NCBI RefSeq assembly: GCF_038025025.1
Contig: NW_027117349.1
Location: forward strand, 992,001 to 1,056,000
DNA: 64,000 nucleotides
Source of the DNA: Phyllosticta citribraziliensis
Lineage: Eukaryota
Direction of reading: 5' to 3'
The notes beneath the pieces are model-generated. The model did not search any database. It saw only the letters and a program-made list of their open reading frames with translations, and was not told where the DNA came from. Made by a program: the position numbers and the translations under genes. Numbering within the stretch: the stretch's first letter is position 1; the number at the start of each line of letters is the position of its first letter. Shown here in pieces: positions 34,964 through 64,000 of this stretch.

Positions 34964-35427
34964 ATGGTCGGCACGATAGTGATGGGTCTCGGCGTGGCTG
35001 CCGCCGCCTTTTTCGTACGTCATTTCTAAACCTTTCGAACCGCGGTCTTGGACATTGCTGACTATCTCCGCAGGGCAGAGCAGGCTACGTCGCACTCCAA
35101 CGGTCGCGTGGAGGCTCGGCTGGGATGCTGGGCAAGGCCTTCTACAAGGGCGGTTTCGAGCCCAAGATGAACCGCCGCGAAGCTTCGCTCATCCTCGAGC
35201 TCCCGTAAGTCGTCACCGGGCCAAACCAACGGAATACACGGATATTCGCATGGGAAAGAAGCTGACGCAAGACGTGGTCTCGTAGGGAAAGAGGCTTGAG
35301 CAAAGAACTCATCCGCAAGAAGCACAGGCAGCTTATGCTGCTGAACCACCCCGACCGCGGCGGAAGCCCGTACCTCGCGTCCAAAGTCAACGAGGCCAAG
35401 GAGTTTTTGGAGAAGGGAGCACAATAG
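34964..35427 (+). CDS. PAM18: Mitochondrial import motor J-protein Pam18/Tim14; two introns
   Basis: [25 protein letters not shown]...[21 protein letters not shown]...[31 protein letters not shown]. Confidence 0.97.
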
Positions 35428-36080
35428 ACTTGAGGGATCGGTGTGCTGTATGATGTGCGATGGGAGCAGATGGGATACAGCGCGGCGTTCGGAATCTACC
35501 ATTGCATGGATGGCGTTTGGGGTATCACCGCTCGAATCCGGTATGCATAGACGGGCTTCTTTTATGCCAGTCAAAATGCATATTTTTCCATTCTTTGAAC
35601 GCTCTGGGATCAGTCGCCCGCTCTGTGGCATCAGGCCATTGCGTTGGGGCTACTTACCTGGAGGCCGCCAGTGACTGTTTGGCTGGACCATGAGAGCCGT
35701 GGTTCACTTCTGACTGTTCCCACGGCAAAGGGAAGAGTGTTGAGGTTTTGCCCGCTGCTTTTTTTCCGCCCAACTACTTCTACCCTCCACGCCCACTTTT
35801 TCTTTTGGCATTCGACTCGTCCAAGAACTCCTGGCTTCGACGTCCTCTCTCTCACCCAGTAGACATCCACGCTCCGATTGAAAAGCCCTCCGACAGCTCA
35901 ACACCAGGTGTGTTTGCCGATCTTCTTAGACTGCGGTCGCTAATCTGCACAAGCTCTCCAACACCGCAACCTCGTCCTTGCCAGCTCCGGGTTTCTCATT
36001 CCCTGTTCGGTCTGAGCTCTTCGCCAATCCCGCCCCTTGAAACCTCGCTCATCGGACACAAAACAAACCGAGCTGTAGCT

Positions 36081-37799
36081 ATGGGCCAACCGTCGACTTC
36101 ACGCCGCGATGCGACGGCAACTCCATTATTTCCGACGACAGCAGCAACGAATAATACCTTGGAACCCCCCAGCCCAGCGCTCCATAAGGCGCAAAAAGTG
36201 TTTCCGCTACTTGACCTTCCGGTTGAGCTGATCCAAAATATTACCCAGCACTTGGCTGGTCCCCAGCTGTCTGACTCCTCTGGTCAACCACACTGGAACA
36301 GGAGTCGTTATGACCCCTTCCGCAAGGACTCGCCTCTCGCCGACGATTTCCTTACTTTCCGCCTCACCTGCAGCTGGATAAATGACGCTACTTTTGTATT
36401 CTTTCGACGAAAATATTTTACATCAAGGAAGGTCATTATGGAATTTGCGAGCCTCCAAGACTTGCTCACCTTGGCCCATCACCCCAAACTGGGAAGACAG
36501 ATCCAAAGCTTGAGGATCCTCCCTTTTTTCCAAGACACCGGACAATTCTTTGAGTTTGAATCGATAGAGGCAAAATACTGTAGCAACCGAATGACGAAGA
36601 GATCAAACTACGATCAAAAGCAGTGGAGCCACATTATGGAGTCTTTCGACAAACTTAGGAAAAAAATCAGGACCACCCACAACATCAATTACAACATGCG
36701 AGAGTCAGAACTAGCTCAGATTCTGCTTCAACGTGCGTTGTCAACATTCGGCGGGCTCCGCAATATTGACTTCGGATACAGTATCGACAAGGATTGGAAG
36801 ATGGCCGAGCTGTGGGAAGCTGCCAAGATGCAGGAGATAGTGCCCATGGCGAAACACTCCTCCGTTTTCGCTCACATTAATGGCGGATATCCGGAAATAT
36901 GGTTGGCTCATCAATCTGATGCTTTGGATATCGTCATCGACGCCATCACCAAGAGCGAGGTTTCTTTATCATCACTGCGACTCCAAGATGGATCACTCCA
37001 GCTTGGGTCAGTTATGATGCGAACTCCGTCAGAAGCCCCAACCCTTCAAGAGTGCCTTCAGAGACTGAGCTCCCTGCATTTGTCGTTCGGAACCAACTTT
37101 CACCACCATTTACAGAGGCTAAGTATCAAATATGTCTTGGAGCTCCTATCTGCTGCCCCTCGAACCCTGGAAGAATTGGGAATCAACTACGAAATGAATC
37201 CTCAGTACCTGTTTCATTGGCATAAAACCACCGAAATGATTGTCGCTGTCGCTCCTCTTTGCAATGAGCTATTCTCAAAGATCAGGTTTCCGCAGCTCGA
37301 AAGGTTAAGCATCAGGTGCACTTCGGAGACAATAACCGGAGTTGCGCAGCTCATCAGCCGACACGCTGGAAGTTTGAAAGCGGTGGAATTCGATCAAACT
37401 GTGCCCAGAAAAGGACACCCGAACTATGAGATCTGGACATCGAAATTGTCTGAATCCGACTTGGAAGTTGTACATGCGGAGTGGTCAAAAATTCTTGAGG
37501 CATGTCTACAGTGCGACAACCTCGTGAATGTTGACATCTACACTCAGAGCGACATCTACCCAGAGACTAAACACGAAGGCACGGAAGTGACTGATATAGT
37601 GTCCTCTCATCGCTTGTCCGGACAGCACATGCACTCAGAGGGGGTTAAAAGCCATGGGCACCTCTCATACCGTCGCAAAGAAGACTACCACAAGCTTTCG
37701 GGTGGAGGAGATCTCGAGCCTCGAGCCAAGTATTTAAAGAGGATGTTGGAGCAGCATTTTTGGGAGTGGAAAGCAGCAGAACTGGTGCATGGGGTGTGA
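36081..37799 (+). CDS. F-box domain protein, array paralog 1 (572 aa)
   Basis: LLDLPVELIQNITQHL...DFLTFRLTCSWINDATF F-box-like motif with an insertion, and C-terminal LxxLxL (LRR/RNI-like) segments. ATG 36081 within ORF 35748..37799. Confidence 0.88.
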   Translation: MGQPSTSRRDATATPLFPTTAATNNTLEPPSPALHKAQKVFPLLDLPVELIQNITQHLAGPQLSDSSGQPHWNRSRYDPFRKDSPLADDFLTFRLTCSWINDATFVFFRRKYFTSRKVIMEFASLQDLLTLAHHPKLGRQIQSLRILPFFQDTGQFFEFESIEAKYCSNRMTKRSNYDQKQWSHIMESFDKLRKKIRTTHNINYNMRESELAQILLQRALSTFGGLRNIDFGYSIDKDWKMAELWEAAKMQEIVPMAKHSSVFAHINGGYPEIWLAHQSDALDIVIDAITKSEVSLSSLRLQDGSLQLGSVMMRTPSEAPTLQECLQRLSSLHLSFGTNFHHHLQRLSIKYVLELLSAAPRTLEELGINYEMNPQYLFHWHKTTEMIVAVAPLCNELFSKIRFPQLERLSIRCTSETITGVAQLISRHAGSLKAVEFDQTVPRKGHPNYEIWTSKLSESDLEVVHAEWSKILEACLQCDNLVNVDIYTQSDIYPETKHEGTEVTDIVSSHRLSGQHMHSEGVKSHGHLSYRRKEDYHKLSGGGDLEPRAKYLKRMLEQHFWEWKAAELVHGV

Positions 37800-38112
37800 G
37801 CCAGCACATGGCATCATCAAGTGGAAACGGCTGGGACACCACATGGATTGGGAAGAAGCGGAATGAGTTCACAAGGTATGGTAGCACGTTGAAAGAGTCC
37901 AGAGTTGAAAGAATAGAGAGATACACATGCTGTTGCACCTGCAGTCTCTTGAGGTCTGAGACTGCTGTGCATAGCAAGCAGCTAAGTTCACGGAATTTCC
38001 TTGCCTTTTTCACAATCTGTTGTTCATATCGTCGCCGTCTTGAGCGATGGACCGAGTAGTTGTCGTAGCACCTGCGTTGCCCATCCAATGGCGATTTCTA
38101 GGACTTGGGTTT

Positions 38113-38360
38113 GACGAAGGAGCAGTCATTCACCGCATCACCTTAGATGAATCTTGGGAGCAGCCGTTCAACTTTACAGCCACGCCGAGGAAGCGGTCCT
38201 CCAGCACCACCTCGACGTCCAGGGAGCACTCTTCCGGCATTGTAGTGACGCCTTGGGAGCATTCTTCGGCCACCACAGCGGCGCTCAGGAAGTGGTTGTC
38301 GACCACCACCACAGCTACGCATGAGGAGTCTCTACCACCACCACCACCCAAAGAGCATCC
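38113..38360. repeat. Degenerate ~33-bp-period repeat array with GGAGCA(K/Y)TC core
   Basis: Cores at 38119 (ggagcagtc), 38157 (ggagcagcc), 38190 (gaagcggtc), 38223 (ggagcactc), 38256 (ggagcattc), 38289 (gaagtggtt), 38325 (ggagtctct) and 38352 (agagcatcc). Four consecutive spacings are exactly 33. Confidence 0.7.
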
Positions 38361-38616
38361 TGCACCACCAAAACGACGGGCCGGAGGCAATCGCTCGCGA
38401 CTGCAGCAACACACTGAGCGCTGCCTTGCAGCTTTACACCTGCGCTCGGTAGTCCGACGTCGTTGCTTCCAGGCGGGCGTTGGTCGTGTGCCGGCCGCTC
38501 TTTCCTCTCGATACCCATCTGCCGACCTCCACACCCCATCAACCTCCCACCACACTCTTTCAACATCAGACACTCAGCTTCAGGTCGCACACCTTTTTGC
38601 ATTCAGGTCCTCCGCC

Positions 38617-40248
38617 ATGGCCACGGCTGACCCGACGCCCCAGACCAAGTGCGGCCCAAGTGGTCTGCTCAAGCTACCTCCGGAGCTCGTCGAGAAAATC
38701 GCATCTCACCTCTCTCCTACAACAAACGGCGTTGAGAACCCCTGGAAAAGTGCTTCGGGATGGTACTCTGTCGACTTTGTCACTCGAGATGACTTCCTCA
38801 CCCTTCGCCACACATGCAGGCAGATGAACGACACGACGTTCAGCTTTTTTCGACGACAATACTTCACCGAACGAGTTGTCAAGCTGCAGACGAAGTCGCT
38901 TCAAGAATTGAGTCAGATTTCTGCCCATCCTACACTTAGAAGGCAGGTCCAGAAGCTGAAGATCTCGCCTCAATTTCATGATCAGTACGAGCGGGGCACA
39001 TTCGGGCATCTTGAGACAAAATACATGGAGAAGTCGAAACACGTACATTTTGCAGAGGGGTCGTGGACTGCGATATTGCAGTCATTCCAAAGTCTTCGCT
39101 CATCAATCACCAAGTCAGTCCAGGAGGATCACCAGCTCTGGAGATCTGGGGTCATCCCTGCGTTACTTGCTCGTATCATGGCGAGCCTCCAAGGACTTCA
39201 TGCTGTTTCATATGGCAATCACAATGTGTCCAACCCCAAGCTACAACGGTTCGACAAACAGACCGCAAAGCTTTGGGTAGCCGCCAGGATCCAAGAAATT
39301 GAAGGAACATCGATTGAGGAGTTCCATAAGAATTTGGCGTTCGACCGGTGGTCATTTCATCGACACAAAGGTTTCCAGATGGTCAAGGCCGCCCTTATCG
39401 CCTGCGGAAAAACATTCTCGTCCCTGCGCTTTGAACACGGCTCCTTTTTGCTGAGAGAAACAATGAGAGAGTCGAAAACAGTCCCATCGTCCCTACTCGA
39501 GCAGTGCTTTAAAGGGCTCAAAGCTCTTCACGTTTCATTCACCCCCATTGTGCCCGAGTACGTTTCGGATACAGCAGTGGATGATGACCTTGAAGAAATC
39601 GTTTGCAACCGGGCTCTTGAAGAACCTGGGTCCGAAGACGCCTTTTTCTTTCTTGCGGCGGTACCTGGAAGCATCGAAGAGCTCGAACTTGGACTAAACA
39701 TTGATCCCGACGAGATGAATTCCTCAGCAGAAGAGAAAGTCTTTGCCGCAACTCCCGTTTTCGACCAGGTGTTCACGATGATCGAGTTCCCTAGACTACG
39801 CAAATTGTCAATCAAAAACACCTTCCACGTGGTGGAATCCATGGCTCAATTGATCAGCAAGCACAAAACAAGCCTCAGGGTTGTCCAAATCAGTCCATCT
39901 GTCCCACAGTCTAGGGATCCTGAATTCGTGTCTTACGTTGCCGAGTGTGGACATGAGCCCGGATTTGATTTTGACAACGCGAAATGGTCGGCTGTTCTAA
40001 AAGCTCTTCTGGAATGCGAAAACCTAGTTGACCTGCGACTGCGAACTCAAAGCAGCATCTACATCGGCGGTGGGAACATTCTCGCCAACCGAAAATCGCG
40101 CAAGTGGCGTGGTCGTCTTTGGTACGCGTGGGGAGAGTCTTACGACGCTGCTCCGTGGGTCATAGAGCCTCGCGCCAAGTTCCTCAGAGAGCGATTTGAG
40201 CAACATCTCGAGGAGTGGAAAAAGGCGGAGCGGGTTCACAAAGTGTGA
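38617..40248 (+). CDS. F-box domain protein, array paralog 2 (543 aa)
   Basis: LLKLPPELVEKIASHL...DDFLTLRHTCRQMNDTTFSFFRRQYFTERVVKLQ. ATG in GCCATGG context at 38617. Confidence 0.88.
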   Translation: MATADPTPQTKCGPSGLLKLPPELVEKIASHLSPTTNGVENPWKSASGWYSVDFVTRDDFLTLRHTCRQMNDTTFSFFRRQYFTERVVKLQTKSLQELSQISAHPTLRRQVQKLKISPQFHDQYERGTFGHLETKYMEKSKHVHFAEGSWTAILQSFQSLRSSITKSVQEDHQLWRSGVIPALLARIMASLQGLHAVSYGNHNVSNPKLQRFDKQTAKLWVAARIQEIEGTSIEEFHKNLAFDRWSFHRHKGFQMVKAALIACGKTFSSLRFEHGSFLLRETMRESKTVPSSLLEQCFKGLKALHVSFTPIVPEYVSDTAVDDDLEEIVCNRALEEPGSEDAFFFLAAVPGSIEELELGLNIDPDEMNSSAEEKVFAATPVFDQVFTMIEFPRLRKLSIKNTFHVVESMAQLISKHKTSLRVVQISPSVPQSRDPEFVSYVAECGHEPGFDFDNAKWSAVLKALLECENLVDLRLRTQSSIYIGGGNILANRKSRKWRGRLWYAWGESYDAAPWVIEPRAKFLRERFEQHLEEWKKAERVHKV

Positions 40249-41302
40249 TGGATTGACCCAGGGAGCCGTCAACGAAAGTGTCGTCATGGGTGAATGTAGG
40301 GAGTGGCTGTTCAACATTACGGATCACACCCTGGGAGCTGCCATACCCTTCCACACCTGCGGAGAAGATGGACAGGACTGAAGAATTTGCTGAAGGGAAT
40401 TTGCTTAAGAGGTTCGGGACTGCGGGATAATCAACGAAAAGCGCTGGCTCTCATGGATTTCGAGGGCTCAATCTCGAACAGAGGATGCAGAGCGTAGCAT
40501 AATCAATTGAGCGGGAATGGCGTGCTCTGACGGCAGAGCAGACCAATGGATTGTGAGGCCTGGTAGCAAGATTCATAGTGCAAACAAAATTGAGATTCTA
40601 TAGCTAGGCGACTTGAACTCTCTGCATTGATATCTTGTGTAGAATCTGAATGTTCTTGAATGTCTCCGAGTACTCTTGTCCATAGTAGCTTGGATGCTTG
40701 CTGTTTTTTGTGTATCAGAGCGCACGAATTCTCCGTATCTGAACCTGTCTGACTAAGTGACACAACTGAGCCTCCATATTCTTCCGTATCGAACCTTCTT
40801 TGGAAAAATTGGTCGCAGTCGTGGATTGTTCAATCAACAGAACAGTGGGTTGGTAGTCATGGATTCCCATTCGGGCAAGCGCGACGGGCGTCCGGACCAT
40901 TTGCCAATTGGTCAACGCGCCGGCGGGAGGCGGCACAGCGCACCGACTCGCGCTCAACATCAGCGCCTCGCGCGACGTTGATTCTTCTACACATCGAACT
41001 TCTTTTCCTCTCTGCAGTTTTCTGCTACGGCAATCATCTGCGGGCTGTCTTGTTGATCAACTTGCACGTCACCTTCATTTTTCGGCGTCACTCTCGCCCG
41101 GTATCCGGGCCACAGCACTTCCGCGCTGCTTCTGTCATCGATCCATCATCTTCATTGACCGCGAATAGCTTCGGCCTTTTGATGCCAACAAGTCTGAAAC
41201 GAGGCTTTTCAGTTCTCGGTATCGCAAAGGTTCGAGAATTTGCCAAAGACGGCCCTGAGCTCTTCACCCCACCGCCGAGGAAATAAACAGAAGCTGTCGA
41301 CC

Positions 41303-43189
41303 ATGGCGTCGCAACAAGATTCTCCGTCACCCGAAAGAATCTCAAGCCGTCCCTCTCTCAGTGGAACACGAAAAGTCTCAACTGCAGATCCGGGTCCTAA
41401 GAAGAACCGGGGCCGCAAGTCTGGGGCTTCCAAGCTTCCAACGGCACGGGCTGCTTCCAAGGCGACGCTCGCTCGGAACAGCAGTCACGGTAACACCAAC
41501 ATCTCGGGCATTCTCAAGCTCCCAATGGAATTGATTGAGAGGATTGCTTCTTTCTTGCAATATCATGACGGATACATGGTTCATTATAAGATCTGTTGTC
41601 CGAAGAACTACCCAGCACTGGGTGGCTGTTTCTATTATCGGCAGGACTACCCAGAACTGGGTGGCTGTTATGACTGGTTCGGTAACTTCAGACTTGTCAG
41701 CCGGCAAATACATGACATGACGTTCGGGACTTTTCGCCGCCGCTACTTTACACGCCGCATGGTGAAGATCCAGCAAAAAAGTCTTGAGAATTTGGTCAGC
41801 ATGTCTGCGCACCCGTTGCTATCGAAGCAAATCCAAGAGCTCATCATCACTCCCCAATGCCACAACAATCAAGATCTCGGCTTTGCAAACGAAATGAGGA
41901 GCATTTTGGATCCTGAAGAGGCTTCGCTTGAGATTGACCCAAGGGCAGTTCGACATGCCGATAGGTGCTTCCAGAAATTTCGACAAAGGTGAGAAATGGA
42001 AAAAGCGTAGGATCGAAAGAGGCATTGACCGCGATACTGCAGACTTCTGGCCTCAATTCAGAGGGATGAAAATCTTCGGACTTCCGGACACGCAACTGAG
42101 CTTCTGTCTCAAGCTCTGAAGGGCTTAAGAAGCGTTGAATCTATTGTCTACGGAACCTATGAAGAGTTTTATCCCACCAGTCATCTTGGGGAGCGAGGCA
42201 CGGAGCTTTGGAAGAGCTTTGTCGATGAAGCAGACGATCACTTTCCAAAGTCACAAGTCGTCTTCCCGCTTTTCAACAGGTATTCCTTCAAAAGGTTCTC
42301 CAAATGTGGCCATAGCGACGTGGACATTGTCATCTCTGCACTTGGAGAATGTGCAACGAACCAGTCCTTCACGAAACTGCGCTTTGAGGACGGATCACTG
42401 ATGTTGCAGGGCACAGAAGCTCCGTCTAGCGCAGCAAGGACCAGTCTTGAAGAATGCTTCAACAGGCTGCAACATCTCCACCTCTCCTTCGCGGCAACAA
42501 ATAAAGCGCGTGTGGACGAAGCACACCGCTTTATCAACGCTGCTCCTGTCGATCTCAAAGAGCTTGAGATCGACTTTACGTGGGAGGAAGGCAACGACAA
42601 GGTCACAGGACCCCTTTATGAAGAATTACTTGAGAACCTCAGTCTACCGCACTTGTGTCATCTAAGTATTCAGGGCATCAAGGGACCATTGACTTTGAAC
42701 GGAGTACCAGCGGCTCTTTGGAACCACCGCCAAAGTCTCATGTCCGTGGAGGTCGAACACTATGCGGGACGCGAAGCCTTCAATGATCATGAAGCCAAGT
42801 GGTCGCGTGTCGCAATAGCTTGCATGTCAGTCGACAAATTGGTGGAGCTGAGAATCGCAAACTACAGCACGATGCACGGATATGACCCGGAATGGGAGGG
42901 TAGTGACGACAGCTTCGATCCCTGGAAATGTTTGTTTGTCGTCTTTCTTGGAAGCGATTACAAGAAAATTCCCGCGTGGCAAATCGAATCTAGCGCGGGA
43001 GAGCTCAAGGACATGTTGGAGGCTTTGTGGTTGTGGGAGTGGAAGGATAATGAAGAACGCGTAGAACGCGAGAGACGAGGAATACTCGAAGAAATGTCAT
43101 CTGCTCAGTCAACGAGCGGCTCAGAGGAGGATTCAGACGCCTCGTCTACTTCGTACATGAGCGGGCCCGAGGACGAAGCAGAGGATTAA
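41303..43189 (+). CDS. F-box domain protein, array paralog 3; one intron at 41989..42042; acidic C-terminal tail
   Basis: ILKLPMELIERIASFL...NFRLVSRQIHDMTFGTFRRRYFTRRMVKIQ. Removing GTGAGA...TTGAC...TGCAG joins ORFs 41240..41992 and 42320..43189 as FRQR-LLASIQRDENLRTSGHATELLSQALKGL, collinear with the paralogs. Confidence 0.85.
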
Positions 43190-44483
43190 ACTTCGGCGCA
43201 TTGGACAGATTCGACGACTATCCATTGCTTCGACACCGTGCTCTTCTGTCCAACACGACAACACGAATCCACCACGGGTCATCATCGAGATTACAAGGAA
43301 GGATCTTTTCTGAACACCAGGATCAGCAGACTTGTGTCAAGTACGTCTAGATCGATGGCTAGATCTAGCTTCAATGGATGCTGTCGTCGCTGCCTCGGGT
43401 CGGGTCGTTTTCTTCAGCGTGAAAGAGATGGTACATTTGCGCGTTTTTCTCACGTTGAATGGTGCATGCATGCACTTGCTTGAAGGCGTCGTCCGGTCAC
43501 TGTGTAAGCGACCAGAAGGCGCTGGAGCCTTGTCAATGCCGGCCCGGACGTCTGCCTTGGAAATGTGCAGCGTTTCTGTGTCTTCGGTGCTGTAGTCTGC
43601 CTTGCCGAGCAAGCAATTGGTGCATGTCTCTGTCGAGCGGAATTGAAAAGGGAGGCCGCCGAGTTGGGTGCCTTGAGTGCTGTGAAGTCAGTAGAGAAGG
43701 ATCAGTCAAGCTGCCTTGAGCTGGGGTAGTTTGGATGAGTCAAGCGGATCTTGGGAATTTGTGCGCCCTGAAGGTGATTGACGGAAAGCTTCCACGCCCT
43801 GCCCGTGGTGCGGTGCGTACCTTGGAGACCAGCTGATGCATCTGCCGCGGCTTGTGCCACAAAGCTTCTTGCTGTTCCCAAAGATGGGTTGTGGCTAGTG
43901 CCTTCCGCAACGTCCCGCGCCGTCAAATAACAAGGAGCTTCCATCTTTCTCAACGCACCACACTCCTCTCCAACCACAACAATTCAATTTCCTTCAACAC
44001 GGCTGTCGTCCTCTGCTGCTCAGAACTCGAGCTTGCATCCCTTCCATCATCGCGCCGCTCGACACTATCACCTCTTTCGCCGGCGCTCTTCGCGCTCGGT
44101 TTGGCTGTCCAGTGACGCAACGAGGCTGGTAACGCGTCTTGCACGTGTCCAGGCGTTTCGACCGCCCTCTCACCTCGACGCTTTCCACGACAGCGCTGTC
44201 TCCCTCTGCTGTTGAGGATACAGGCTCCGACATCTACAGCGACTCCGACAATCAATATTCTCACCTCTCTTAAACACCAAAGCGTCTTGCGCACCGATTG
44301 GCTGCCCGCTAACACAGCTGTTGCACGACGCGCACCCATCTTGCACTAACCTTCAGCCCAATCAGAGCTCACCACAAGAAACCGGCTTCCGCAGGCACAT
44401 GGGATACTCTTTCACTTTCTCTGCGTAGGCTTGGTGCTTTCACCAACACACGGCGCTCCTTCGACGCGTCTGCCCCGATCAAC

Positions 44484-45968
44484 ATGGACATCCAACCTTG
44501 CACGCCCTCTCCAAGCGAGCCGCCTGACCTCACTGATATGGCCACTCAACCCAACGCGCCGCGCCACGAGAAGTGTGTCTCCTCTCCGGGATTCCTCAAG
44601 ATGCCCATGGAGATGGTCGAAAGAATCGTGCGTTATCTGCCATATACATCCTTGCTCAAGCTTCGTCTCGTCAACCGCCAACTCCACGACATGAGCTTCG
44701 ACACATTCAAGAAAAGATTTCCTGGGCGTCTGTCAGTCAGAATGAATCTCAGAGATCTTCGACGGCTGGTTGACCTCGCGTCGCATCCTTTTCTGAGCCA
44801 AAAAGTTAAGGAGGTGCAAATTCGTTCGGCCTACGAGGACAATCTCTTAGCAATCTTCGACGAGTTGGCTCCCAAATGGAAAAACATCCCGAAAGACAGC
44901 CAAGACCAACTGGATGAAATGCCGATGCATTGGATCAGGTTTCGCAAAAGACTTGTGGATCATACTGAGGGTGAAAGACACTTCAGGGATTCGGGGATGG
45001 CTTCTTCATTGCTAGCCCGTGCAATAAAAATGCTGAACAAGCTCGAAACAATCACTCAGGTCCGGGCTCTGAATTATGAGCAAGAATGGGGATGGATAGA
45101 GCTATGGCTTGACAAACAACTCCCGCCGTGCGACCGCGAAGGTGAACTGGATCGAGAAGTCGAAAAGCGAATTGCTCGTGATGACCGCAGAATCATTCGA
45201 GACTTTCGAAGCGATGTTGACAACTTGGAGTTCTACGATTTTCCAGCCCACCATTTTACCTGCGATCCCCGCGACCTGGATGTCATCATTTCCGCGATGG
45301 CTGCTAGCGGTTTCACTCAGACTATGTTGAATCTCCGCGAGGAAAACTTCATCGTCAAAGAACATACCCCGATTGCAGATGACCCACAGAAGAAGCTTCT
45401 CCAACGCAGCCTAAAGAAACTAAGGTCTCTCGAAATATCTCTCGTCTTGAAACAAGGCTCGGACGCAGGATATGTACCGTGGTTTTTGGATGCTGTCTCA
45501 GACACGCTCGAAGAGTTGACCATTGACGTTCCCGTCCGTTTCCTTCCCCCTAGAGAGTCGGCCGGAAGCATTTTCCGTGTGTTCGAGGAGATATTTCGGA
45601 GATGCAGATTCCAAAACCTCAAGCAATTGAATTCAAGGTTTACCCCAAACGCTGCGACAAACCTGGAGCAATTCATTCTCGAGCACAAGAGTACTCTGAG
45701 GCGTATCACCCTGTCGAGCATGGAAGGTTGCCGTGCGATACCTCAAACAGAAACAGCAAGGTACTCCGAGGTGTTGAGGGCGTGTCTGGAAGTTCCCAAT
45801 CTTGAGTACTTCGAACTCGTGCATAACTCAGACGTACATGCGAGCAGGGACGGCAAGCGCTCCATTTGGGTAAAGGACTTGACAATGTCCCCGAACAACC
45901 CTGGAAGAACAAGATTGGAGACAAGCCTGAGAAGGTGGGAGAGGCGCGAGGTAGCTGCAGGACTGTAA
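44484..45968 (+). CDS. F-box domain protein, array paralog 4 (494 aa)
   Basis: Canonical F-box FLKMPMEMVERIVRYLPYTSLLKLRLVNRQLHDMSF, with downstream motifs shared with its neighbours. Confidence 0.9.
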   Translation: MDIQPCTPSPSEPPDLTDMATQPNAPRHEKCVSSPGFLKMPMEMVERIVRYLPYTSLLKLRLVNRQLHDMSFDTFKKRFPGRLSVRMNLRDLRRLVDLASHPFLSQKVKEVQIRSAYEDNLLAIFDELAPKWKNIPKDSQDQLDEMPMHWIRFRKRLVDHTEGERHFRDSGMASSLLARAIKMLNKLETITQVRALNYEQEWGWIELWLDKQLPPCDREGELDREVEKRIARDDRRIIRDFRSDVDNLEFYDFPAHHFTCDPRDLDVIISAMAASGFTQTMLNLREENFIVKEHTPIADDPQKKLLQRSLKKLRSLEISLVLKQGSDAGYVPWFLDAVSDTLEELTIDVPVRFLPPRESAGSIFRVFEEIFRRCRFQNLKQLNSRFTPNAATNLEQFILEHKSTLRRITLSSMEGCRAIPQTETARYSEVLRACLEVPNLEYFELVHNSDVHASRDGKRSIWVKDLTMSPNNPGRTRLETSLRRWERREVAAGL

Positions 45969-46316
45969 TCGTCTTTTTTACAGGACATGCGCAGATTTAC
46001 AGGGTGCAGGCCATGATTCGATGTCCCTGCTGATCTGCGTTTTTCTTCTTTTCAAGAGAATGCTTCCTTCGGATGGCTAACTTCGGATTTATGCCTTCGG
46101 TCTAAGCCCCAAATAGGCCGGAGCTTCCGTGGGATCCACATAGTTCGGGCACCACAATTTTGCGTACAAAATAATAGAACTCCACTCGCTTCATCCTCCC
46201 CTTGCAACGTACTTCACGCTACTGCTCCGCAAGCCTCCTACATGTGCCCTATTTGACAACGTTGCTCTAGTACAACGCCCACAAGTTCGCGTGTGCCTTT
46301 CTTCTTGAGACGACAA

Positions 46317-47630
46317 ATGGATACCCGATCCGAGCCTCCGGCGGATCAAGCAGCTCTTCTCAAGCTTCCCGTCGGACTGATCGAAAGCATCGTGGAGTAC
46401 TTGCGAACCTGGCCGGCAAAGCAGGACTTCTTGAACTTTCGGCTTACCCACCGCATCCTACATGAGAAGTCTTTCCGGCTCTTCGGCAAATTGTACTTTG
46501 AGCATGTCAAGACTGAACTGACGCTGAAAAAGCTTCAAAGATTAATCGACATTGCCGCTCATCCCCCAGTGGCAAAATATGTGAAGACGCTGGAAATCAT
46601 TGCCCAGGATTTCGATAACAGTGATCTTGCCTACGTTCAGTTATACGCAGACAATTGGCTGGAAGGCATCTCCCGCAGAGACAACACAAGGTTCAAAGGT
46701 GCGCGAGACATCTACGACCAGTTCCGTGCGGACTTCGTGGACCGAATCGAAAGCGACAAAAGGATCCGCGAATCTGGGCTTGCGCACTCGTTGCTCACGC
46801 GCGCGATGAGTGGCTTGAAGAACCTCGAAGCCCTCTCTTGCGACTACAACTACAGAAGTCAGAGGAGACGGTTGGAAAAGCTGTGGGACGATCTTCTTTC
46901 CCCAAGCGAATTCGATGACGACCTTCGAGCCCTTGACTTTGACTGGGATGTACGTGCCAGGAGGGAAAGACGCCGCTGCAACATGGATATCATCCTGTCT
47001 GCAGTGATCGCCAGCGGTGTCGCCCCTTCAAAGCTGGAGTTCAGTGGCGGATTATTCGTCGCTAAAAAGGAGACTCCGGGGTCGGGTCTCCCAGAGACGC
47101 TGCTCTACGAGAGGCTCTTCAGAAACAGTTTCAGGAACCTCAAGGTCTTGGAAATTGTTCTCTCAGCAGACGCCGAATCCGACGTCAAGTACATGCCGTG
47201 GTTCCTGGGAGCCGCCTGCGCAAACCTGCAAGAGTTGGCCATCGTCTGCCATTTGGATTCGCAGGAACAAGACGCACTAATTCCCATTTTCGACGCCATT
47301 CTTGCGACCTGCGAATTTGAGTCCCTGCAAGTACTGGGTCTCAGCATCCCTGCAAATGCTACTACGCACCTCAGCCAGTTCATTCGCAGGAACGGCAAGA
47401 CTTTGCGAGAAATCGATATTCAAATTTCTCCAAGCAAAAGTGCGAAGTGGTCGGAGGTCTTGAGAGCGTGCCTTGAAGCGGGACGCCTGGAAAGCCTCGA
47501 CTTGAGCACGTATGCGGACTGTTATGGGTCGCTTCACAGCGTCACCTTCTCGCCGGAGCATCCTCCTTCCTCAAGGCCGGAAGAGGTGCTGGAAAAGTGG
47601 GAGGCGGTAGAGCGCGCTGCTGAACTGTAG
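46317..47630 (+). CDS. F-box domain protein, array paralog 5 (437 aa)
   Basis: LLKLPVGLIESIVEYLRTWPAKQDFLNFRLTHRILHEKSF, SGLAHSLLTRAM, KWSEVLRACLE. Confidence 0.9.
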   Translation: MDTRSEPPADQAALLKLPVGLIESIVEYLRTWPAKQDFLNFRLTHRILHEKSFRLFGKLYFEHVKTELTLKKLQRLIDIAAHPPVAKYVKTLEIIAQDFDNSDLAYVQLYADNWLEGISRRDNTRFKGARDIYDQFRADFVDRIESDKRIRESGLAHSLLTRAMSGLKNLEALSCDYNYRSQRRRLEKLWDDLLSPSEFDDDLRALDFDWDVRARRERRRCNMDIILSAVIASGVAPSKLEFSGGLFVAKKETPGSGLPETLLYERLFRNSFRNLKVLEIVLSADAESDVKYMPWFLGAACANLQELAIVCHLDSQEQDALIPIFDAILATCEFESLQVLGLSIPANATTHLSQFIRRNGKTLREIDIQISPSKSAKWSEVLRACLEAGRLESLDLSTYADCYGSLHSVTFSPEHPPSSRPEEVLEKWEAVERAAEL

Positions 47631-48319
47631 CTGCTCTGCTTGCTGGCGAGGCGATGCTGCTTGGAACGAAGATATGGAGCGATCGCTTGGTTTTTGCCAC
47701 CGGATTCCAAAATTGGGGACTGGGTCACACGAGGATGGTCGGACCATTGACCGAATGCTCCTTGTCACATTCCCTTGCGGAAGTCTCAATCTAAGGTCGC
47801 TTGAAAGCTTCCTGGTAACACACTTCTAACCGTACGAATGCTCCCTACGATTCCTTCCTGTTCAATTTCTCGTTGTTTTTCGCAGCCTTTCCCACTGGGC
47901 CTTGAAATTACGGATGAGTCGATAAGTGAAGTCAGAAAGCTATCAATGTGACGAAATACTGTCACTGACAAAGGAAGAGAAGCTGCTTCACGCAAAACGG
48001 ACTCGAGAGGGGGTGGCATAGGTTGACGAGTTTTATTCGAACGCCTGGTCCTCCAATCAAGAATCGCTTCCAGCCGCGCAAGGTCGCCACAACTCACCCT
48101 GAGACTGCTATTTGTGCTGTCCAGTCGTTGAGAGGCTATTTACATCGGACTTGCGTCTCAAAACGGACAGAATAGCCGCGCGCCAGGCACCCGTCGTAAC
48201 TCCGCGCCGCTCCAACATGCTTATTTATATTCCTGCATCCACTCACAGAACGAGTCTCTGCCTTCACCTTTTTGTTTATTCCCTGCAGACTCATTGCGCG
48301 ACTCATCCATTCCGAGAAA

Positions 48320-49699
48320 ATGGGAACCAAGGATATCACTTTCGTGGATTGCAGTGGTGATCTACTTGAGCTTCCAATGGAGTTGACTGAACTAATTGCG
48401 GACTACTTGTCGACCGAAGACTTTTTCAGTCTTCGTCTCACAAACCGGATGCTGCATGATAAGACCTCCGATCTGTTCGCCAAGCGTTACTTTACGCGGC
48501 GAGTCGTCAAACTCCAATTGTACAGCCTACGGAACCTGGTCAACATTTCCAAGCATCCGACGTTGGCAAAGCGAGTCAAAGTCCTTGAAATCACGCCTAC
48601 GATCCAAGATACATTTGATCGATCTCTCATGAAACGGCTTGTACATGGATGGGCTGGTTGGTCGTCAAAGCACTTCAAGGGGCACACTAAGAAGGAGAAC
48701 ATGCACATTTACGAGTCTCTCCAGAAAATCCGCTCCCGATTCTCCAAAATTATCGACCGCAATCTTTCCGTCAGGCCGTCGGGGCTTGTCACCGCAGTGC
48801 TGACTCAAGCCTTCATGGGCTTCGAGAGTCTTGAAAGCCTCCGGTACGGTCTATTCGAGACGGAATCGAGATATTGGGACGATCAAATGGCGGATTACTG
48901 GAACGATGCTGGACTTCAACAAAGCACCGGCGTCGCTTTAGCAGACTACGACTGGGGCAGACGGGGGCCGAACTGGAGATATCATGGCCACTGTTACTTG
49001 GCCCATGTCCTGTCGGCTATGATGGTCAGCCGCATCAAAGTTTCGCGCTTGAACCTTGAGGCAGGAGCGTACCACGCCCTAGAAATTCCGAGCCTAGACG
49101 CCCCCAAAGCGCTGGTACTTCAAGACTGCTTCAGCAGATTGAAGTGTCTCCAGTTTTCACTTTCCACGGAATACTACAAGACGGCTGGTGTCGAAGATAT
49201 TGCCAGCCTTTTCAGAAACATGCCCCAATCAATTGAAGAGTTGGAATTATTCACGCAGAATGCAGAGCACGGTGAAGAGAGAGGAACTTGGCAGTTGGAA
49301 GCGGCCAAGGCCATATGGTGCGTTGTACTCGAAGAGTCCAACTTCCCACGCTTGCATAGCCTGAACCTTGCTCTTGCGTGTGCGAGCTTGGCTCCTTGTC
49401 TGTACCAATTCATCGGCGGCCACTGCAACTCTCTGCGGACCATTCGGGTCAGCCCTTGTGGCGCCGCGCGGTGGGACAACCAGATGAACAAAGTCAAATG
49501 GTCTGCCTTTCTGGATCTCTTTCTGTCAGCTCCGAATCTGGATGAAATCTTCTTCCAAACGCCTTGCTCCATCTACGACGGGCTTGACAATGATACTTGT
49601 CACGAGAATCTTGGTCTTCAAGCAGGTAGAGCCAGTGTGCAGGGGAAGATGAAGATCTGGAAGCAAGCGGAAGATGATTTAGGTCTTTCATCGGATTAG
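48320..49699 (+). CDS. F-box domain protein, array paralog 6 (459 aa)
   Basis: LLELPMELTELIADYLSTEDFFSLRLTNRMLHDKTSDLFAKRYFTRRVVKLQLYSLRNLVNISKHPTL. Confidence 0.9.
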   Translation: MGTKDITFVDCSGDLLELPMELTELIADYLSTEDFFSLRLTNRMLHDKTSDLFAKRYFTRRVVKLQLYSLRNLVNISKHPTLAKRVKVLEITPTIQDTFDRSLMKRLVHGWAGWSSKHFKGHTKKENMHIYESLQKIRSRFSKIIDRNLSVRPSGLVTAVLTQAFMGFESLESLRYGLFETESRYWDDQMADYWNDAGLQQSTGVALADYDWGRRGPNWRYHGHCYLAHVLSAMMVSRIKVSRLNLEAGAYHALEIPSLDAPKALVLQDCFSRLKCLQFSLSTEYYKTAGVEDIASLFRNMPQSIEELELFTQNAEHGEERGTWQLEAAKAIWCVVLEESNFPRLHSLNLALACASLAPCLYQFIGGHCNSLRTIRVSPCGAARWDNQMNKVKWSAFLDLFLSAPNLDEIFFQTPCSIYDGLDNDTCHENLGLQAGRASVQGKMKIWKQAEDDLGLSSD

Positions 49700-49969: not shown

Positions 49970-50791
49970 ATGGAGGGAAGCACCGCAGGTCCGGATCCAG
50001 TCACCAAAGCGAGCGAAAACAAGGCCCCAGAACGCAAAGGATGGGAACAGAGAGAGCTGGTAACGGTGGGAATATCTGCCATGATCTACCGAATCAGCGA
50101 AGACCGCATCATCAAGATCCCAAAAGTCCGCACCAAAGACGAGGACTGCTTTGAGTATTGGAACGAAATGTGTCGCGATGAGCTCCAGAGAGAGAAGGCT
50201 GCGGTTGAGCGACTCGCCAGTCATCCACACATCATCCAGTGTTTTGGAATCTCTGACCCCGTCGACGGCATCAAGCTGGAATATGCATTTGCAAACCAAG
50301 GAAGCGCCGGTGAGATGATCCGCCAGAAAAAGCCGCCTCCACCCCTGGATCTGAGAAAGGAGTGGTTCTGGTCGCTCGCCGACGCCCTCAACCACGTTCA
50401 CTCGCGCAGAGTGTTCCATGGTGACGTCCACTTGCTCAACGTTCTGATGCACAACGACGCGGTCATGCTATGCGATTTTGGACAATCGGACCTCTTGCCA
50501 TTGGACACCGACATGGCGAGTTGGAAAAGCGAGGGCGATGAGACGGTGCAAGTGGAGATGCTACTCCTTGGCTACGTTTTCTATTCCATCATGGTCTGGA
50601 AGGAAACCAGGTACGACTGGTGGGATACCAAGACTTTTCCAGAGGCGGGAGATCGGCCGATTTTGAATGGCGTCCCTTACGCGGCTGTTATTCACAAGTG
50701 CTGGACGGGTGGATGTCGTTCGATGGATGATTTGAGGAGCGAGGTCTTCAAGACTGGGGACGATGAGTTGCTTTGTACTCCAGGGTCTTGA
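49970..50791 (+). CDS. Stand-alone protein kinase domain protein, atypical non-RD type (273 aa, intronless)
   Basis: IIKIP (beta3 Lys), ELQREK (alphaC Glu), HPHIIQC, catalytic loop HGDVHLLN, CDFG. No APE motif is visible. Confidence 0.9.
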   Translation: MEGSTAGPDPVTKASENKAPERKGWEQRELVTVGISAMIYRISEDRIIKIPKVRTKDEDCFEYWNEMCRDELQREKAAVERLASHPHIIQCFGISDPVDGIKLEYAFANQGSAGEMIRQKKPPPPLDLRKEWFWSLADALNHVHSRRVFHGDVHLLNVLMHNDAVMLCDFGQSDLLPLDTDMASWKSEGDETVQVEMLLLGYVFYSIMVWKETRYDWWDTKTFPEAGDRPILNGVPYAAVIHKCWTGGCRSMDDLRSEVFKTGDDELLCTPGS

Positions 50792-51816
50792 GAGGGGACC
50801 TCTTCACTGCGATTGGTCACTGCGAATCGAGTTACTCTTGCGGCGATCACTTCTCTCTCTATCCGCGAAAATCAGCAACACCGCTCACCTTCTTCTCGAA
50901 CTTTGCTCCTGGGATAACTCACCTTATCATCGCGTGTTTGGATGTCGCTTTCCAACTTCACGCGGAAGTTTGTAGCACTCACTGCTAGCAGGTCCAGCAT
51001 TGGGTAAACGGAAAATTTCCGCGCTCTGTTGGTAATTGTTGATGTGAAAACAGAATGAAGGTGGTAATCTCCTGCCTCCGGTCCAAGGAACGGAGTTAGC
51101 CTTTCCAACTCCCAACCCGGCGGTAATCATGGCGATGAAGTGACCTGGCAAGCCTGGTGCGAGTCAGGCTGGGATTCAGGTACCACGTCGCAATCTCGCC
51201 GACACATTTTCCTCTCTGCATACCGGTGCAGCGCGACGGTTCCGAAGGCTTTTACAACTCCAGGCGATGAATATTGGCCGAATGAAGTCTTCGTGGCGGT
51301 CAAACTCTGCGAATTCGCAACTTGTCGCTCATGTGCGCTGTGCCATGGGGTCGAAAAAGGCTCGTAAAGCACGAGCCCGGGCCCCCACCTCTTTCCATCG
51401 CTACCCCAGAACAGCACTTCATTTGTTGAAGTGAAGAACTTGGGGCTCCAGAGGAAAAAGGAGACATCGCTTGTCCAAAAGTAGCCGGACGAGCACTGAT
51501 CGGGCCGGTCAGGCGGCAAAGGCTTCTTCCTCGTCATCTCGGATAGCAAACGGGAGCGCCTTCGGATTCGCCATCGGCTGCAACGACGTCGACACCGCCT
51601 AGGGCGGCGCACCATCACATCAGCAACTGTGCTGTGTCCTGCTGCAGGTGTTGACCACCGGCGCTTTTCCGCGCGCAAAGGCCCCCCTGAGGACAAATAC
51701 AAAAGCTGACCAATATCCACCTACGCGACTCAGGCATAGGAAGGCACCCGATTGCATATATCTACCAGGCTGATTCTTCACAAGGATGGTGTTCACCGTA
51801 CTCAAACGTCGACAAC

Positions 51817-52956
51817 ATGGTTTCCTCCAAGCTGCTCTTTGTGCTGGCGAGCGCCGCCGTCTCTTCGGCATTTGATCCGCAACTGGGCTACAACAGCTTC
51901 GTCGATGTCGAGAACCGCACCATCGATGAGATTTACCAAGCAGCCCTGAAGGAGGGCGGAACAGTCACCCTGTGGCACGGCGGAGATGAGAAGAATCAGC
52001 AGAACTCGCTCAAGCAGGCGTTTGAGGAGCGCTTCCCTGGCATGACGCTGAACGTCACTGTTGACTTGTCCAAGTACCATGATGTCAACGTAAGTAGTTG
52101 AGCATCACTCCCTCTCAAGCAGTTTTGACTGAGTGGGCAGATCGACCGTCAAATCGCTACTGGCGATGTCTACGTTGACAGCGTTGCGCTGCAGACGCTG
52201 CACGACTACCCGAGATGGAAGTCGCAGGGCGCGCTGCTGCCGTACAAGCCCCTCGGCTGGGATGCCCTCTACAAGGACTTCCGCGACGCCGACGGCTACT
52301 ACAACGGCTTCTACGTCTTGAACTGGGCGAACAGATGGAATACCGACTACGTCAAGGAGCCAATCAAGGAGTTTGACGACTTTCTGCGGCCCGAGTTCAA
52401 GAACAAGCTCATCCTGACGTACCCCAACGACGACGACGCCGTTCTCTTCGCCTTCGACCTCATCATGAAGCAGCAGGGAGGCTACGAGTGGTTCGAGAAG
52501 CTGCTGGCCCAGAAGCCGCGCTGGGTCCGCGGCTCCGCCACGCCCAACACCCTCATCAGCAACTCTAACGGCACCTACACGGCATCCTTCACCGGTTCAA
52601 TTGGCCTGACTCCCTCCGCACCCTTCAACGTCTCGCTGCCAACTGCGCCCAACAGCTTCGTCTCGTGGCCGCAGACCGGCGCCATTCTCAAGGATGCGCC
52701 GCACCCCGAGGGCGCCAAGCTGCTCCACTCGTACATCTTGTCGGAGGAGTTCCAGGCAGCGAGGGGCGGCTGGTCCGTTCGCAGCGACATTGATGGTCCC
52801 GCGGGATACCCCAAGATCTTTGACGTACCCGGAACTGATGTCACCAAGTTTTCTGAGTTCATGGCCGACCGTGCTGCTGTTGAGAGGCTGCGCTTTTATT
52901 TTGAGGACAAGATTGGCTCGGCTCAGGGGCTGAGCCCGTTGGAGGACAACCTTTGA
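51817..52956 (+). CDS. Secreted periplasmic-binding-protein type II fold protein (ABC-type Fe3+/thiamine-binding-like); intron at 52090..52140
   Basis: Signal peptide MVSSKLLFVLASAAVSSA, IYQAALKEGGTVTLWHGGD, FEERFPGMTLNVTVDLSKYHD, LILTYPNDDDAVLF, AILKDAPHPEGAKLL. Confidence 0.88.
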
Positions 52957-62291: not shown

Positions 62292-62834
62292 AGGTGCTGG
62301 CCCAATTCGTGGTGGAGAGGTAGGTGCTTTTGCCCTTTTTACTGTTGGACATCTTTCTCTGACTTGAAGGCCGAACTCTGCCCCGCGGCCAGCAGCGGGC
62401 ACAGTACTTGAGCTCGCCAGCTTGGGAAGTCGCAACGCTTGTGCTGGTTGGCAACAAACACTCTCCGCCGCCCTCTCCCCTTCTTCCATTTCTCTGCATC
62501 CCATCTCCTGACAACTATGGCCCATTGACCGTTTCCCTTAAACCTGGGTCGACCTCTGCAACCGCCGCGTACCGCCGCTCAGCAACCGCCTACGTCAACC
62601 CAAGCTGACCTCACATTCGTGGGTCCAAGGTACGCTTTCATCTGTGTAATTCCATCGCGATTGCAGGTCAACTAACAGCAATGGCGCAGAAGAAGCTGCC
62701 GATACCCAGTCACCGATTCTGCGGAGTTAGATACAGTACTAGGCCAAAAGTATTTACTTAATTAGCCAATAACGCAGAACACAAAATCGCGCACTTACAT
62801 CCCCCCCCTTTACTTTACTACCACTATAGCTCCA

Positions 62835-64000
62835 TATACTCTATTAGTATAAGTCTTTAGTACTTAAGAGTATTATAAGGAGCTTACTCTAGTTTAAAGA
62901 GCTCTTATTATTTTATCCTACTATTCTAGTAAGAAAGTCTTAATAATTACTTCTAAGCTTTCTATACTACTATTAATAGTTAAATATACCTTATAAAACT
63001 CTATACCTAACTATAGTAGTATATCTAAAGTATATACTAGTTAGCTAAGGGCTATATTAGATTAAGATAAATAGGTTATTATCTAGGAAGTATAAAAAAA
63101 TCTAAAAGTAATATATACCTAGCTCTATAATTTATATAGACTAATAATATTATCTAAAACCTATTACTATATTCTTAAGTAGTATAATATTACTAATTAG
63201 AAGGTAGCTAAGTAGCCCTTCCTTATAATTATATATATAGCTATTTAACTTACTTAGGCTAAGGTATAGTATAACTAGACTATAATAGATTAGGCTAAAC
63301 TTATCTAGTCTAATAAGTACTCTATAAAGTATAGTAAGGGTAAATAATATAAATAGATCTTCTATATACTAGACTAGAAGTAGGAGTAGGAAATAATTAA
63401 AATATATAAGAAAGGAAAAAATATATTAGTTATAGTCTAAATAATATTTTCTAGTACTCTTAAAAGGAGTAATCTCTTTATAATAATAAGAGATCTAGAG
63501 GTAAAGAGGAAGAGCTACTCTACTAACTTCTATCTTTAAGTTTTAGATAAAATAATTCCTACTTTATAGGAACCTAGTATAACCTTTATATAGAATAATA
63601 CCCCTATCTATAAGTTAAAGAAGATTATAAAATAGTTTAAAACTATAGCTATACCCCTTATTAATTAGCCCCCCTATTTACTAGTATAGGTAGGACTAGC
63701 TACTTACTAATATACTTACTTAGCTAGCTAAAATACTAGTACTAGAAGAGGTATAAGAGATAGTAACTAGTAGTAAATAAGTAGGCTCTATAGAATAGGA
63801 ATAAAATAACTACTAAACTAACTAAAATAAGCTACTATCTAGCTATTATTTTACTATCTAAGTAGTATAAGACTTAAGTATAAATAAATAAATAACTAAG
63901 TATTTAGTAGATAGTAGTTTAACTAAGTATAAAAGACTTTATTTATATAAGTAGTACCTCTTAATAAGTAGCTATAAAAGGGAGTATATAACTAGCTAAT
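62835..64000. mobile_element. AT-rich, RIP-degenerated repeat (probable transposon relic; family unrecognisable), continues beyond the window
   Basis: Abrupt AT enrichment with TpA everywhere. By eye there is no CpA, TpG or CpG after ~62835, and the track lists no ORFs here. Confidence 0.88.

Follow-up and report, generated by a model that had tools for sequence, protein, structure and literature searches.

Six co-oriented genes in the window, the 64,000-nt stretch of DNA analyzed here from the citrus-associated fungus Phyllosticta citribraziliensis, are read with moderate confidence as FBXL-type SCF substrate receptors that arose as old tandem duplicates in a Phyllosticta ancestor and have since undergone birth-and-death evolution. 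The N-terminal F-box would dock on Skp1, and an LRR solenoid of nine strands, carrying two helical inserts, would bind the substrate, leading to its ubiquitylation and proteasomal degradation. Skp1 binding and E3 function of the array proteins are putative. The paralogs may have diverged to different, non-essential substrates; each gene would then be individually dispensable, so that copies could be gained, lost and broken.

The six genes (G1 to G6) were confirmed on the + strand at the coordinates given in the earlier note, with products of 437-610 aa and spacers of 348-1294 nt (Table 1). The array begins directly after a housekeeping block, as that note had described, comprising PheRS-beta, HEAT-repeat and L24e-like genes and finally a J-domain gene with Pam16/DnaJ matches, which we take to be Pam18-like by similarity and which ends 653 nt before G1. 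On the right, the kinase-like gene is co-oriented and lies 270 nt past G6, with no sign of array membership. A probable remnant of a lost copy starts 25 nt past the G1 stop on the same strand. It aligned exactly with the C-terminal 19 residues, with a tblastn E of 0.36 and a local score of 63, which was equalled by one of 40 shuffle maxima.

Table 1. Features of the F-box/LRR array and its flanks (window positions)
Feature	Position	Strand	Description
Left flank J-domain gene	34964..35427	+	three exons, two spliced introns; outside array
Intron upstream of G1, probably 5' UTR	35908..35953	+	46 nt, GT-AG, spliced in RNA-like contig
G1	36081..37799	+	572 aa; F-box with ~30-residue insert, no Pfam match; LRR solenoid
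Probable remnant of lost G2-like copy	37825..37878	+	last ~19 codons, in-frame stop
G2	38617..40248	+	543 aa; F-box (sub-cut-off Pfam matches) and LRR solenoid
G2 insert after second LRR strand	38971..39147	+	residues 119-177, two helices
G3	41303..43189 (41303-41988 + 42043-43189)	+	610 aa; F-box with ~35-residue insert; LRR solenoid, acidic tail
G3 intron	41989-42042	+	54 nt, GT-AG
G4	44484..45968	+	494 aa; canonical F-box and LRR
G5	46317..47630	+	437 aa; degenerate F-box (no Pfam match) and LRR; G4-like subclade
G6	48320..49699	+	459 aa; F-box (sub-cut-off) and LRR solenoid
Right flank degenerate protein-kinase-like gene	49970..50791	+	PF00069 E 1.4e-14

The array genes are open and transcribed. 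The joint of the G3 intron was seen spliced in RNA-like contigs of run X1, which was judged to be RNA from its spliced joints, none of the listed runs being registered as RNA, and in which contig depth gives no ranking of the genes. One of the six genes has an upstream TATA motif. RIP was rejected as the cause of divergence, the indices of the six genes being in line with those of control genes. The last 1.2 kb of the window were RIP-like.

The earlier note's description of deeply diverged paralogs held up. All 15 protein pairs aligned over most of their length with 21-31% identity (BLASTP E 1e-17 to 1e-77, computed within the six-protein set), and no DNA similarity among the genes was detected when the window was compared with itself by blastn. 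This pairwise comparison rejected artefact or chance as the source of the array. The ordered motif series proposed in the note is real, but the motifs as written were approximate: two had a spacer one residue short and matched none of the six proteins. Once the spacing was corrected or relaxed, five of six proteins matched the F-box start motif, four of six YF..R.V...SL..L.....HP, and all six L..L.....HP and the terminal W[KE]..E. Five protein queries matched only the six genes in the genome, except for two weak F-box-only matches (E 0.002 and 0.05), both from one query.

The F-box/LRR architecture that the note had suggested was supported by predicted models and fold searches. The AF2 models of G6 and G2 had pLDDT values of 86.9 and 84.9 (pTM 0.87), and in both an F-box is followed by a solenoid of nine beta-strand/helix repeats with helical inserts. 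The G6 model (residues 12-445) matched Skp2 (1fqv_A) with Z 13.5 and rmsd 5.1 over 263 aligned residues, covering F-box and solenoid, next to TIR1 (Z 13.6) and FBXL17 (Z 12.9), and G2 returned the same order (Z 11.4, 11.1 and 10.7); Z values of 11-14 lie near the range in which the search tool advises caution for repeat proteins. Both models superposed on the Skp2 F-box region. The top 50 matches of both searches were LRR proteins, and RanGAP, an LRR protein without an F-box, was level with the F-box/LRR receptors in the G6 search (Z 13.4). Foldseek TM-scores reached only 0.2-0.4. The modest Z values, the RanGAP tie and these TM-scores weigh against the main reading. A PDB sequence search gave nothing relevant among its three matches (E 0.02-2.4, the best at 0.02 unrelated), the six proteins had no Pfam LRR match, and 9 of 108 family members matched PF24758.

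F-box membership is clear for G4 and is assigned to the other five by homology and model. In the Pfam scan, G4 was the one array member of six to pass the PF00646 cut-off (25.2 bits against 20.5). G2 and G6 gave sub-cut-off matches (E 0.005-0.002; 0.0017 for G6), as did G3 (E 0.14), and no Pfam F-box match was found in G1 or G5. Across the family, 68 of 108 members matched F-box-like models at E<=0.01, and one P. capitalensis member also exceeded the Pfam cut-off. A single Skp1 gene was found in the genome, in keeping with the main reading; another fungal Skp1 has a C-terminal half identical to it. Five F-boxes under the cut-off and the 25-35-residue F-box inserts of G1-G3 were counted against the main reading. 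They could mean that these insert-bearing proteins have given up Skp1 and work outside the SCF complex, as binders or decoys, an idea favored by the poor Pfam results of G1-G3, by the splitting of the F-box motif and by the long stem branch of G1 (0.52). We consider this quite improbable. The ~25-residue G2 insert was modelled as a low-confidence loop (residues 36-55) between F-box helices that kept high confidence, and the G2 F-box region was identical to its ortholog at 48 of 58 positions, above the protein mean. The hallmark positions (L-P-E and R-L) aligned in all six.

In the tree, 20 Phyllosticta rows lay on one side of a branch and eight outgroup rows on the other with 100/99 support; this tree excluded the seven rows from the genome itself, 16 of the 24 distant rows and a single fragment, and another family tree left out five fragments. 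Family scores fell from E<1e-29 to >1e-23 outside the Phyllosticta subclade, within a wider ascomycete family of 2,882 representatives. The earlier note's term lineage-specific thus applies at genus level, where the expansion is confined to the Phyllosticta clade, but not to the family, which is widespread in ascomycetes. G1 grouped with P. citrichinaensis P0168 (77%) and P. capitalensis P0003/P0006, G3 with P. capitalensis P0023, G6 with P. capitalensis P0019, and G4 with the intact P. citricarpa/paracitricarpa gene. The cross-species pairs of G1, G3 and G6 predate the P. capitalensis split, and by these tree placements the array duplications do so too and are old within the genus. In the genome, F-box-like matches at E<=1 numbered 81, about 40 of which passed the cut-off, and besides the array there are at least four further clusters of F-box genes. 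A JGI metagenome scan for related loci returned 41 pattern matches and no relatives. The open-licence literature yielded no paper on this array, and "F-box" does not occur in the main text of PMC9073689.

The public protein records showed copy gain and loss and null alleles. P. capitalensis carries a nearly collinear six-gene set with consecutive accession series in all six records. It has extra G4-like copies, and G2 was not found in its protein records. Frameshifted or split records were found for three of six genes, in each case from at least two sources, and G1 is split in a further record from that species cluster; some of these protein records may reflect sequencing or gene-model errors. 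The citrus-pathogenic clade (P. citricarpa) yielded one intact gene and fragments. We note this apparent array loss beside the pathogen lifestyle and claim no link, as it concerns one clade and protein records only. Instead of the uniform one-to-one orthologs without polymorphism that would have spoken against the earlier note, copies were gained, lost and broken.

These records bear on two further explanations. Allorecognition was raised as a possibility in the earlier note; a locus of the het/vic or S-locus type would have alleles or haplotypes discriminating self from non-self. SLF clusters consist of clustered, diverged F-box paralogs, which the array layout resembles, and the unequal divergence of the genes in run X4 is a weak hint in the same direction. 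The allele data speak against it. In P. capitalensis, the species to which the allele comparison was confined, 35 of 36 strain-by-gene slots fell into a single 90% cluster for each gene, and alleles of full length differed by 1-7 residues, with no deeply diverged allele classes; the comparison covered six strain records and further assemblies, and six strains may under-sample diversity. The two P. citrichinaensis G2 records differed by four residues, and ten scanned window proteins gave no HET or NLR family match. P. capitalensis is homothallic (PMC9073689). Near-identical alleles and broken records suit dispensable SCF receptors that evolve by birth and death and argue against an allorecognition allele series; we regard the latter as extremely improbable. 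Alternatively, redundant old duplicates may be decaying under weak selection, in nearly neutral drift and with no specific role. The null alleles in several genes, the remnant after G1 and the predominance of fragments in one clade would suit such decay, as would G3 pN/pS, which, calculated from 24 of the >1,200 differences listed, does not fall significantly below the neutral value (p 0.058), although at about 0.46 it also counts in favor of the main reading. We consider decay very improbable, since six reading frames that are intact over 437-610 codons while sharing 21-31% identity, with intact orthologs in distant species, imply long-term purifying selection; no DNA similarity is left among the six, and two P. 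capitalensis genes were invariably full length in all records.

The insert after LRR2, the least conserved large region, raises another explanation, in which the array is a conflict-driven surveillance battery of SCF receptors that recognise foreign proteins from mycoviruses, transposons, drive elements or competitors, the insert being their diversifying surface. Between G2 and its ortholog in the sister species P. citrichinaensis, the insert was identical at 16 of 59 positions (27%) against 353 of 469 elsewhere (75%). It was less conserved than the rest in nine of nine ortholog/paralog pairs (p<0.05 in five), although its boundaries were set after viewing the G2 pair and the nine pairs are not independent. 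Copy turnover and null alleles, as seen in the array, are typical of immune genes (for nematode F-box genes, see PMC12951971). The insert was modelled as ordered helices at the sequence position of the pocket-forming loop-2 of TIR1 (PMC4030839), and may form part of the substrate site. One relative (run X4), among the pieces listed, differed by 1% at G2 and by 9% near G4. On the other hand, surface-exposed helices diverge more quickly than the core of a solenoid even when positive selection is absent. In favor of the main reading, strand residues were near-identical in sister-species orthologs and differed between paralogs. The P. citrichinaensis G2 branch showed no significant burst of change in a relative-rate test of the insert (16 vs 9, p 0.23), and the few polymorphic sites in P. 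capitalensis were not concentrated there. Similar old arrays of many unrelated families in this genome point to a genome-wide duplication tendency. We judge this explanation unlikely, and distinctly unlikely in the form of a battery against foreign proteins that endophytic Phyllosticta have kept and the citrus-pathogenic clade has for the most part lost. A defence role, as raised in the earlier note, is possible but unsupported; if true, the battery would offer an experimentally tractable fungal parallel to the F-box-based immunity proposed for nematodes.

Read as SCF receptors under birth-and-death evolution, the array would be a well-defined case of an ordinary process and not a new system. 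For the majority of fungal F-box genes, neither a C-terminal domain nor a function has been assigned, and the array indicates that one large ascomycete F-box family has a predicted FBXL-type solenoid whose helical islands vary. Six compact, collinear genes, for which an endophyte carries natural null alleles, also offer a test bed for substrate divergence and for "F-box immunity".

Among known systems, plant SLF/SFB genes encode clustered, turning-over substrate receptors of Cullin-1 ligases, and they and nematode FBXA/fbxn carry FBA/FTH or other C-terminal domains. The nematode genes likewise encode clustered, turning-over Cullin-1 ligase receptors (PMC12951971), as proposed for the array. 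Both groups are young and highly polymorphic within species, whereas array alleles are near-identical and the copies old. The array resembles FBXL-type receptors (Skp2 1FQV, FBXL17 6W66, FBXL2 6O60; TIR1 2P1M, COI1 and D3/MAX2) in its N-terminal F-box and beta-alpha LRR solenoid, and its insert after LRR2 lies within a repeat and is reminiscent of TIR1 loop-2 (PMC4030839). It differs in its 10-15% identity to them, about nine repeats, a ~60-residue two-helix insert plus a second insert, and the split F-box of three members. Expanded fungal F-box families share its tandem origin, fast divergence and unassigned C-terminal domains. In Agaricomycetes the expansion is ascribed mainly to recent tandem duplications and to development (bioRxiv 10.1101/349894), whereas the array arose by old duplications in a dothideomycete. 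The number of F-box-like matches in this genome fits the usual range of filamentous fungi (60-90 genes), and the accessible part of PMC7991009 reports no F-box cluster in the related Macrophomina phaseolina. The array also resembles a widespread uncharacterised ascomycete F-box and LRR-like family (Elasticomyces, Coniochaeta and many metagenomic proteins), which has the same F-box and C-terminal solenoid and shares the F..R...L...SL..L..IS.HP.L...V..L.I block, and of which the array forms a separate Phyllosticta subclade.

Six paralogous genes (G1 to G6) occupied 36081-49699, all on the plus strand, which bears out the earlier note: each of the 15 protein pairs aligned nearly end to end, with BLAST identities of 21-31%. 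At the DNA level the genes no longer showed any similarity. The motif series proposed as common to them was real, although it held only approximately in the form first written, and the housekeeping block on the left flank was confirmed. A RIP signature was sought in the six genes and not found. Their GC3 was 0.55-0.64, versus 0.60-0.85 in eight control frames. Some 13 kb to the right, at 62800-64000, the composition switched abruptly to AT-rich (GC about 0.24, TpA/ApT 1.96, (CpA+TpG)/(ApC+GpT) 0.02), as is typical of a RIP-mutated transposon in base composition.

Array genes, adjoining kinase-like gene and further F-box groups (window positions in the first seven rows; C, contigs and L, loci of the same genome)
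Feature	Location	Strand	Remarks
G1	36081-37799	+	
G2	38617-40248	+	
G3	41303-43189	+	one intron, 41989-42042
G4	44484-45968	+	
G5	46317-47630	+	
G6	48320-49699	+	
Degenerate protein-kinase-like gene	49970-50791	+	co-oriented with the array, directly behind G6 on the right flank
L016-L021	C10:1694904-1738280	both	eight diverged F-box frames in 44 kb, 7/8 mutually similar
L030, L031	C19:4688-14051		four small F-box + cysteine-rich (zinc-ribbon-like) genes; 35-kb contig
Small F-box group	C7:1687494-1691585		three genes of the same F-box + cysteine-rich (zinc-ribbon-like) type
Small F-box group	C9:665517-668833		pair of the same F-box + cysteine-rich (zinc-ribbon-like) type

In contigs of run X1 the G3 intron was missing, as were one intron upstream of G1 and those of flanking genes. 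This marks the run as RNA-like and shows that G1 and G3, at least, are transcribed and spliced. Other long contigs of the run covered G2, G4 and G6, with thin cover at G5. One RNA-like contig (34853-40577) joined a J-domain gene, G1 and G2, and another (about 41000-46185) joined G3 and G4, both with the spacers included; such contigs do not prove a single transcript, and read-through or overlapping UTRs are possible. A phospho-degron link between the kinase-like gene and the F-box genes is conceivable. Just past the stop of this gene, a minus-strand intron (50859-50922, CT..AC on the plus strand) was spliced in two runs, which suggests antisense or convergent transcription. The gene at 51733-52956 looked secreted and matched extracellular solute-binding domains of bacterial type (SBP_bac_6, E 1.2e-8). 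Where the 90% clusters of the proteins have named members, these are Phyllosticta citribraziliensis, which a passage of PMC9073689 describes as a citrus endophyte.

The F-box/LRR identity proposed earlier was supported by modelled fold, and by Pfam in part. The Pfam scan placed an F-box above cut-off in G4 only; G2, G6 and G3 had weaker matches, G1 and G5 lacked any, and none of the six matched a Pfam LRR family. AlphaFold models of G6 and G2, built on alignments of 115 and 108 sequences, had pLDDT values of 86.9 and 84.9 and a pTM of 0.87. Both ran from three F-box helices through nine parallel strand-helix repeats to a capping helix ending in W[KE]..E, and two helical inserts broke the solenoid, the first consisting of two long helices (about 60 residues) directly after strand 2. 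In a wide structural search, G6 matched TIR1 (Z 13.6, rmsd 3.6, 226 aligned) and Skp2 (Z 13.5, rmsd 5.1, 263 aligned, model 12-445), then RanGAP (13.4), FBXL17 (12.9) and FBXL2 (12.7), values that are modest for repeat proteins. A common fold is no proof of function. TIR1, Skp2 and RanGAP also ranked first for G2. The F-box/LRR matches spanned both domains. The likeliest reading, though well short of certain, is that the six are substrate receptors of SCF ligases, of the FBXL type, whose substrates have diverged and are not essential; they would bind Skp1 and have E3 activity. Loss of Skp1 binding in G1-G3, whose F-box is split by a 25-35-residue insert, seems improbable; in the G2 model this insert formed a low-confidence outward loop and the F-box helices stayed intact.

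A profile from five of the six proteins matched 2,882 representatives at E<=0.001 and 15 at E<=1e-30. All 13 named clusters among the top matches looked up were from Phyllosticta, two of ten distant relatives looked up carried a name (Elasticomyces, Coniochaeta), and Atlas neighbours were ascomycete F-box or hypothetical clusters. The Phyllosticta rows fell on one side of a branch (SH-aLRT 97 against 31 other rows; 100/99 against 8 outgroup rows). In the tree, G1, G3 and G6 each paired with one P. capitalensis gene, so the duplications are older than the split from that species. The array is therefore lineage-specific, as had been suggested, only in that the Phyllosticta rows form one clade, since its relatives extend across ascomycetes. 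In all six P. capitalensis records, five members were consecutively numbered (in the order G1-like, G3-like, G4/5-like, G6-like, G4/5-like), with the sixth four accession numbers further on in 5/6; we infer their adjacency from this numbering. Protein records of P. capitalensis yielded no ortholog of G2. From the pathogenic clade came a single intact gene, an ortholog of G4 (P. citricarpa, P. paracitricarpa). P. citriasiana had a truncated version of it (216 aa) beside a 323-aa G1-like fragment, and P. citricarpa a G2 fragment of 135 aa. As these are protein records from one clade, we claim no link to lifestyle.

Within P. capitalensis, each gene formed a single 90% cluster in 35/36 strain-by-gene slots, and 1-7 residues separated the full-length alleles of five genes. 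Frameshifted or split records affected three of the six genes, each from more than one data source, including 3/6 sequences of the G1-like gene; two genes were full length throughout. G1 was split at residue 515 in a further record from the species cluster to which the window belongs. Downstream of G1 lie 19 codons that are probably left over from a G2-like end. Annotation artefacts may account for some of the broken records. Public gene models cut G3 to 311 aa (P0027) and, in another record, G4 to 368 aa (P0015); the window frames are full. The pattern is that of dispensable copies undergoing birth and death. It is not the allele series of an allorecognition locus, a role the earlier note had raised and which these near-identical alleles make very hard to credit. 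Near-neutral decay would leave broken copies as well, and we regard it as a slim prospect. Run X4 contained at least two relatives (36954-38532, 43707-45149), one about 98-99% alike at G1/G2 and 91% near G4, the other with a G1-like copy about 85% alike and indel lengths unlike the P. citrichinaensis protein.

That the genes act in defence, with the helical island after strand 2 as recognition surface, is rather unlikely, if less so than decay or allorecognition. Strand residues were nearly unchanged in sister-species orthologs and different between paralogs. In 9/9 pairs the island was less conserved than the remainder, at p<0.05 in five of them, and the contrast was sharpest in G2 (16/59 versus 353/469 elsewhere), a pair seen before the insert boundaries were set. 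Exposed helices drift faster anyway. A relative-rate test on the insert gave no significant result (p 0.23), nor were P. capitalensis polymorphisms clustered there. Among the best-supported of more than 1,200 differences between X4 and the stretch, 24 listed substitutions in G3 comprised 15 non-synonymous and 9 synonymous ones (pN/pS about 0.46, p 0.058 against neutrality). Positive selection in the array is therefore a lead and not a result. Judged from sequence position, the insert sits where TIR1 loop-2 would, which, according to a section of PMC4030839, builds the substrate pocket.

The genome held 81 F-box-like matches at E<=1, inside the 60-90 F-box genes that a passage of bioRxiv 10.1101/349894 quotes for filamentous fungi. 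Sixteen stretches chosen around clustered matches contained at least four further groups in which neighbouring F-box frames resemble one another, of which that on C10 is a family separate from G1-G6; F-box pairs also lay on C2 and C11. Arrays of old tandem duplicates thus seem to be common in this genome as a whole and do not single out this locus. Our search of open-licence literature found no publication describing the array. For the related Macrophomina phaseolina, on the other hand, the relevant part of PMC7991009 reports no F-box cluster. The array is a further example of an already known kind of system.
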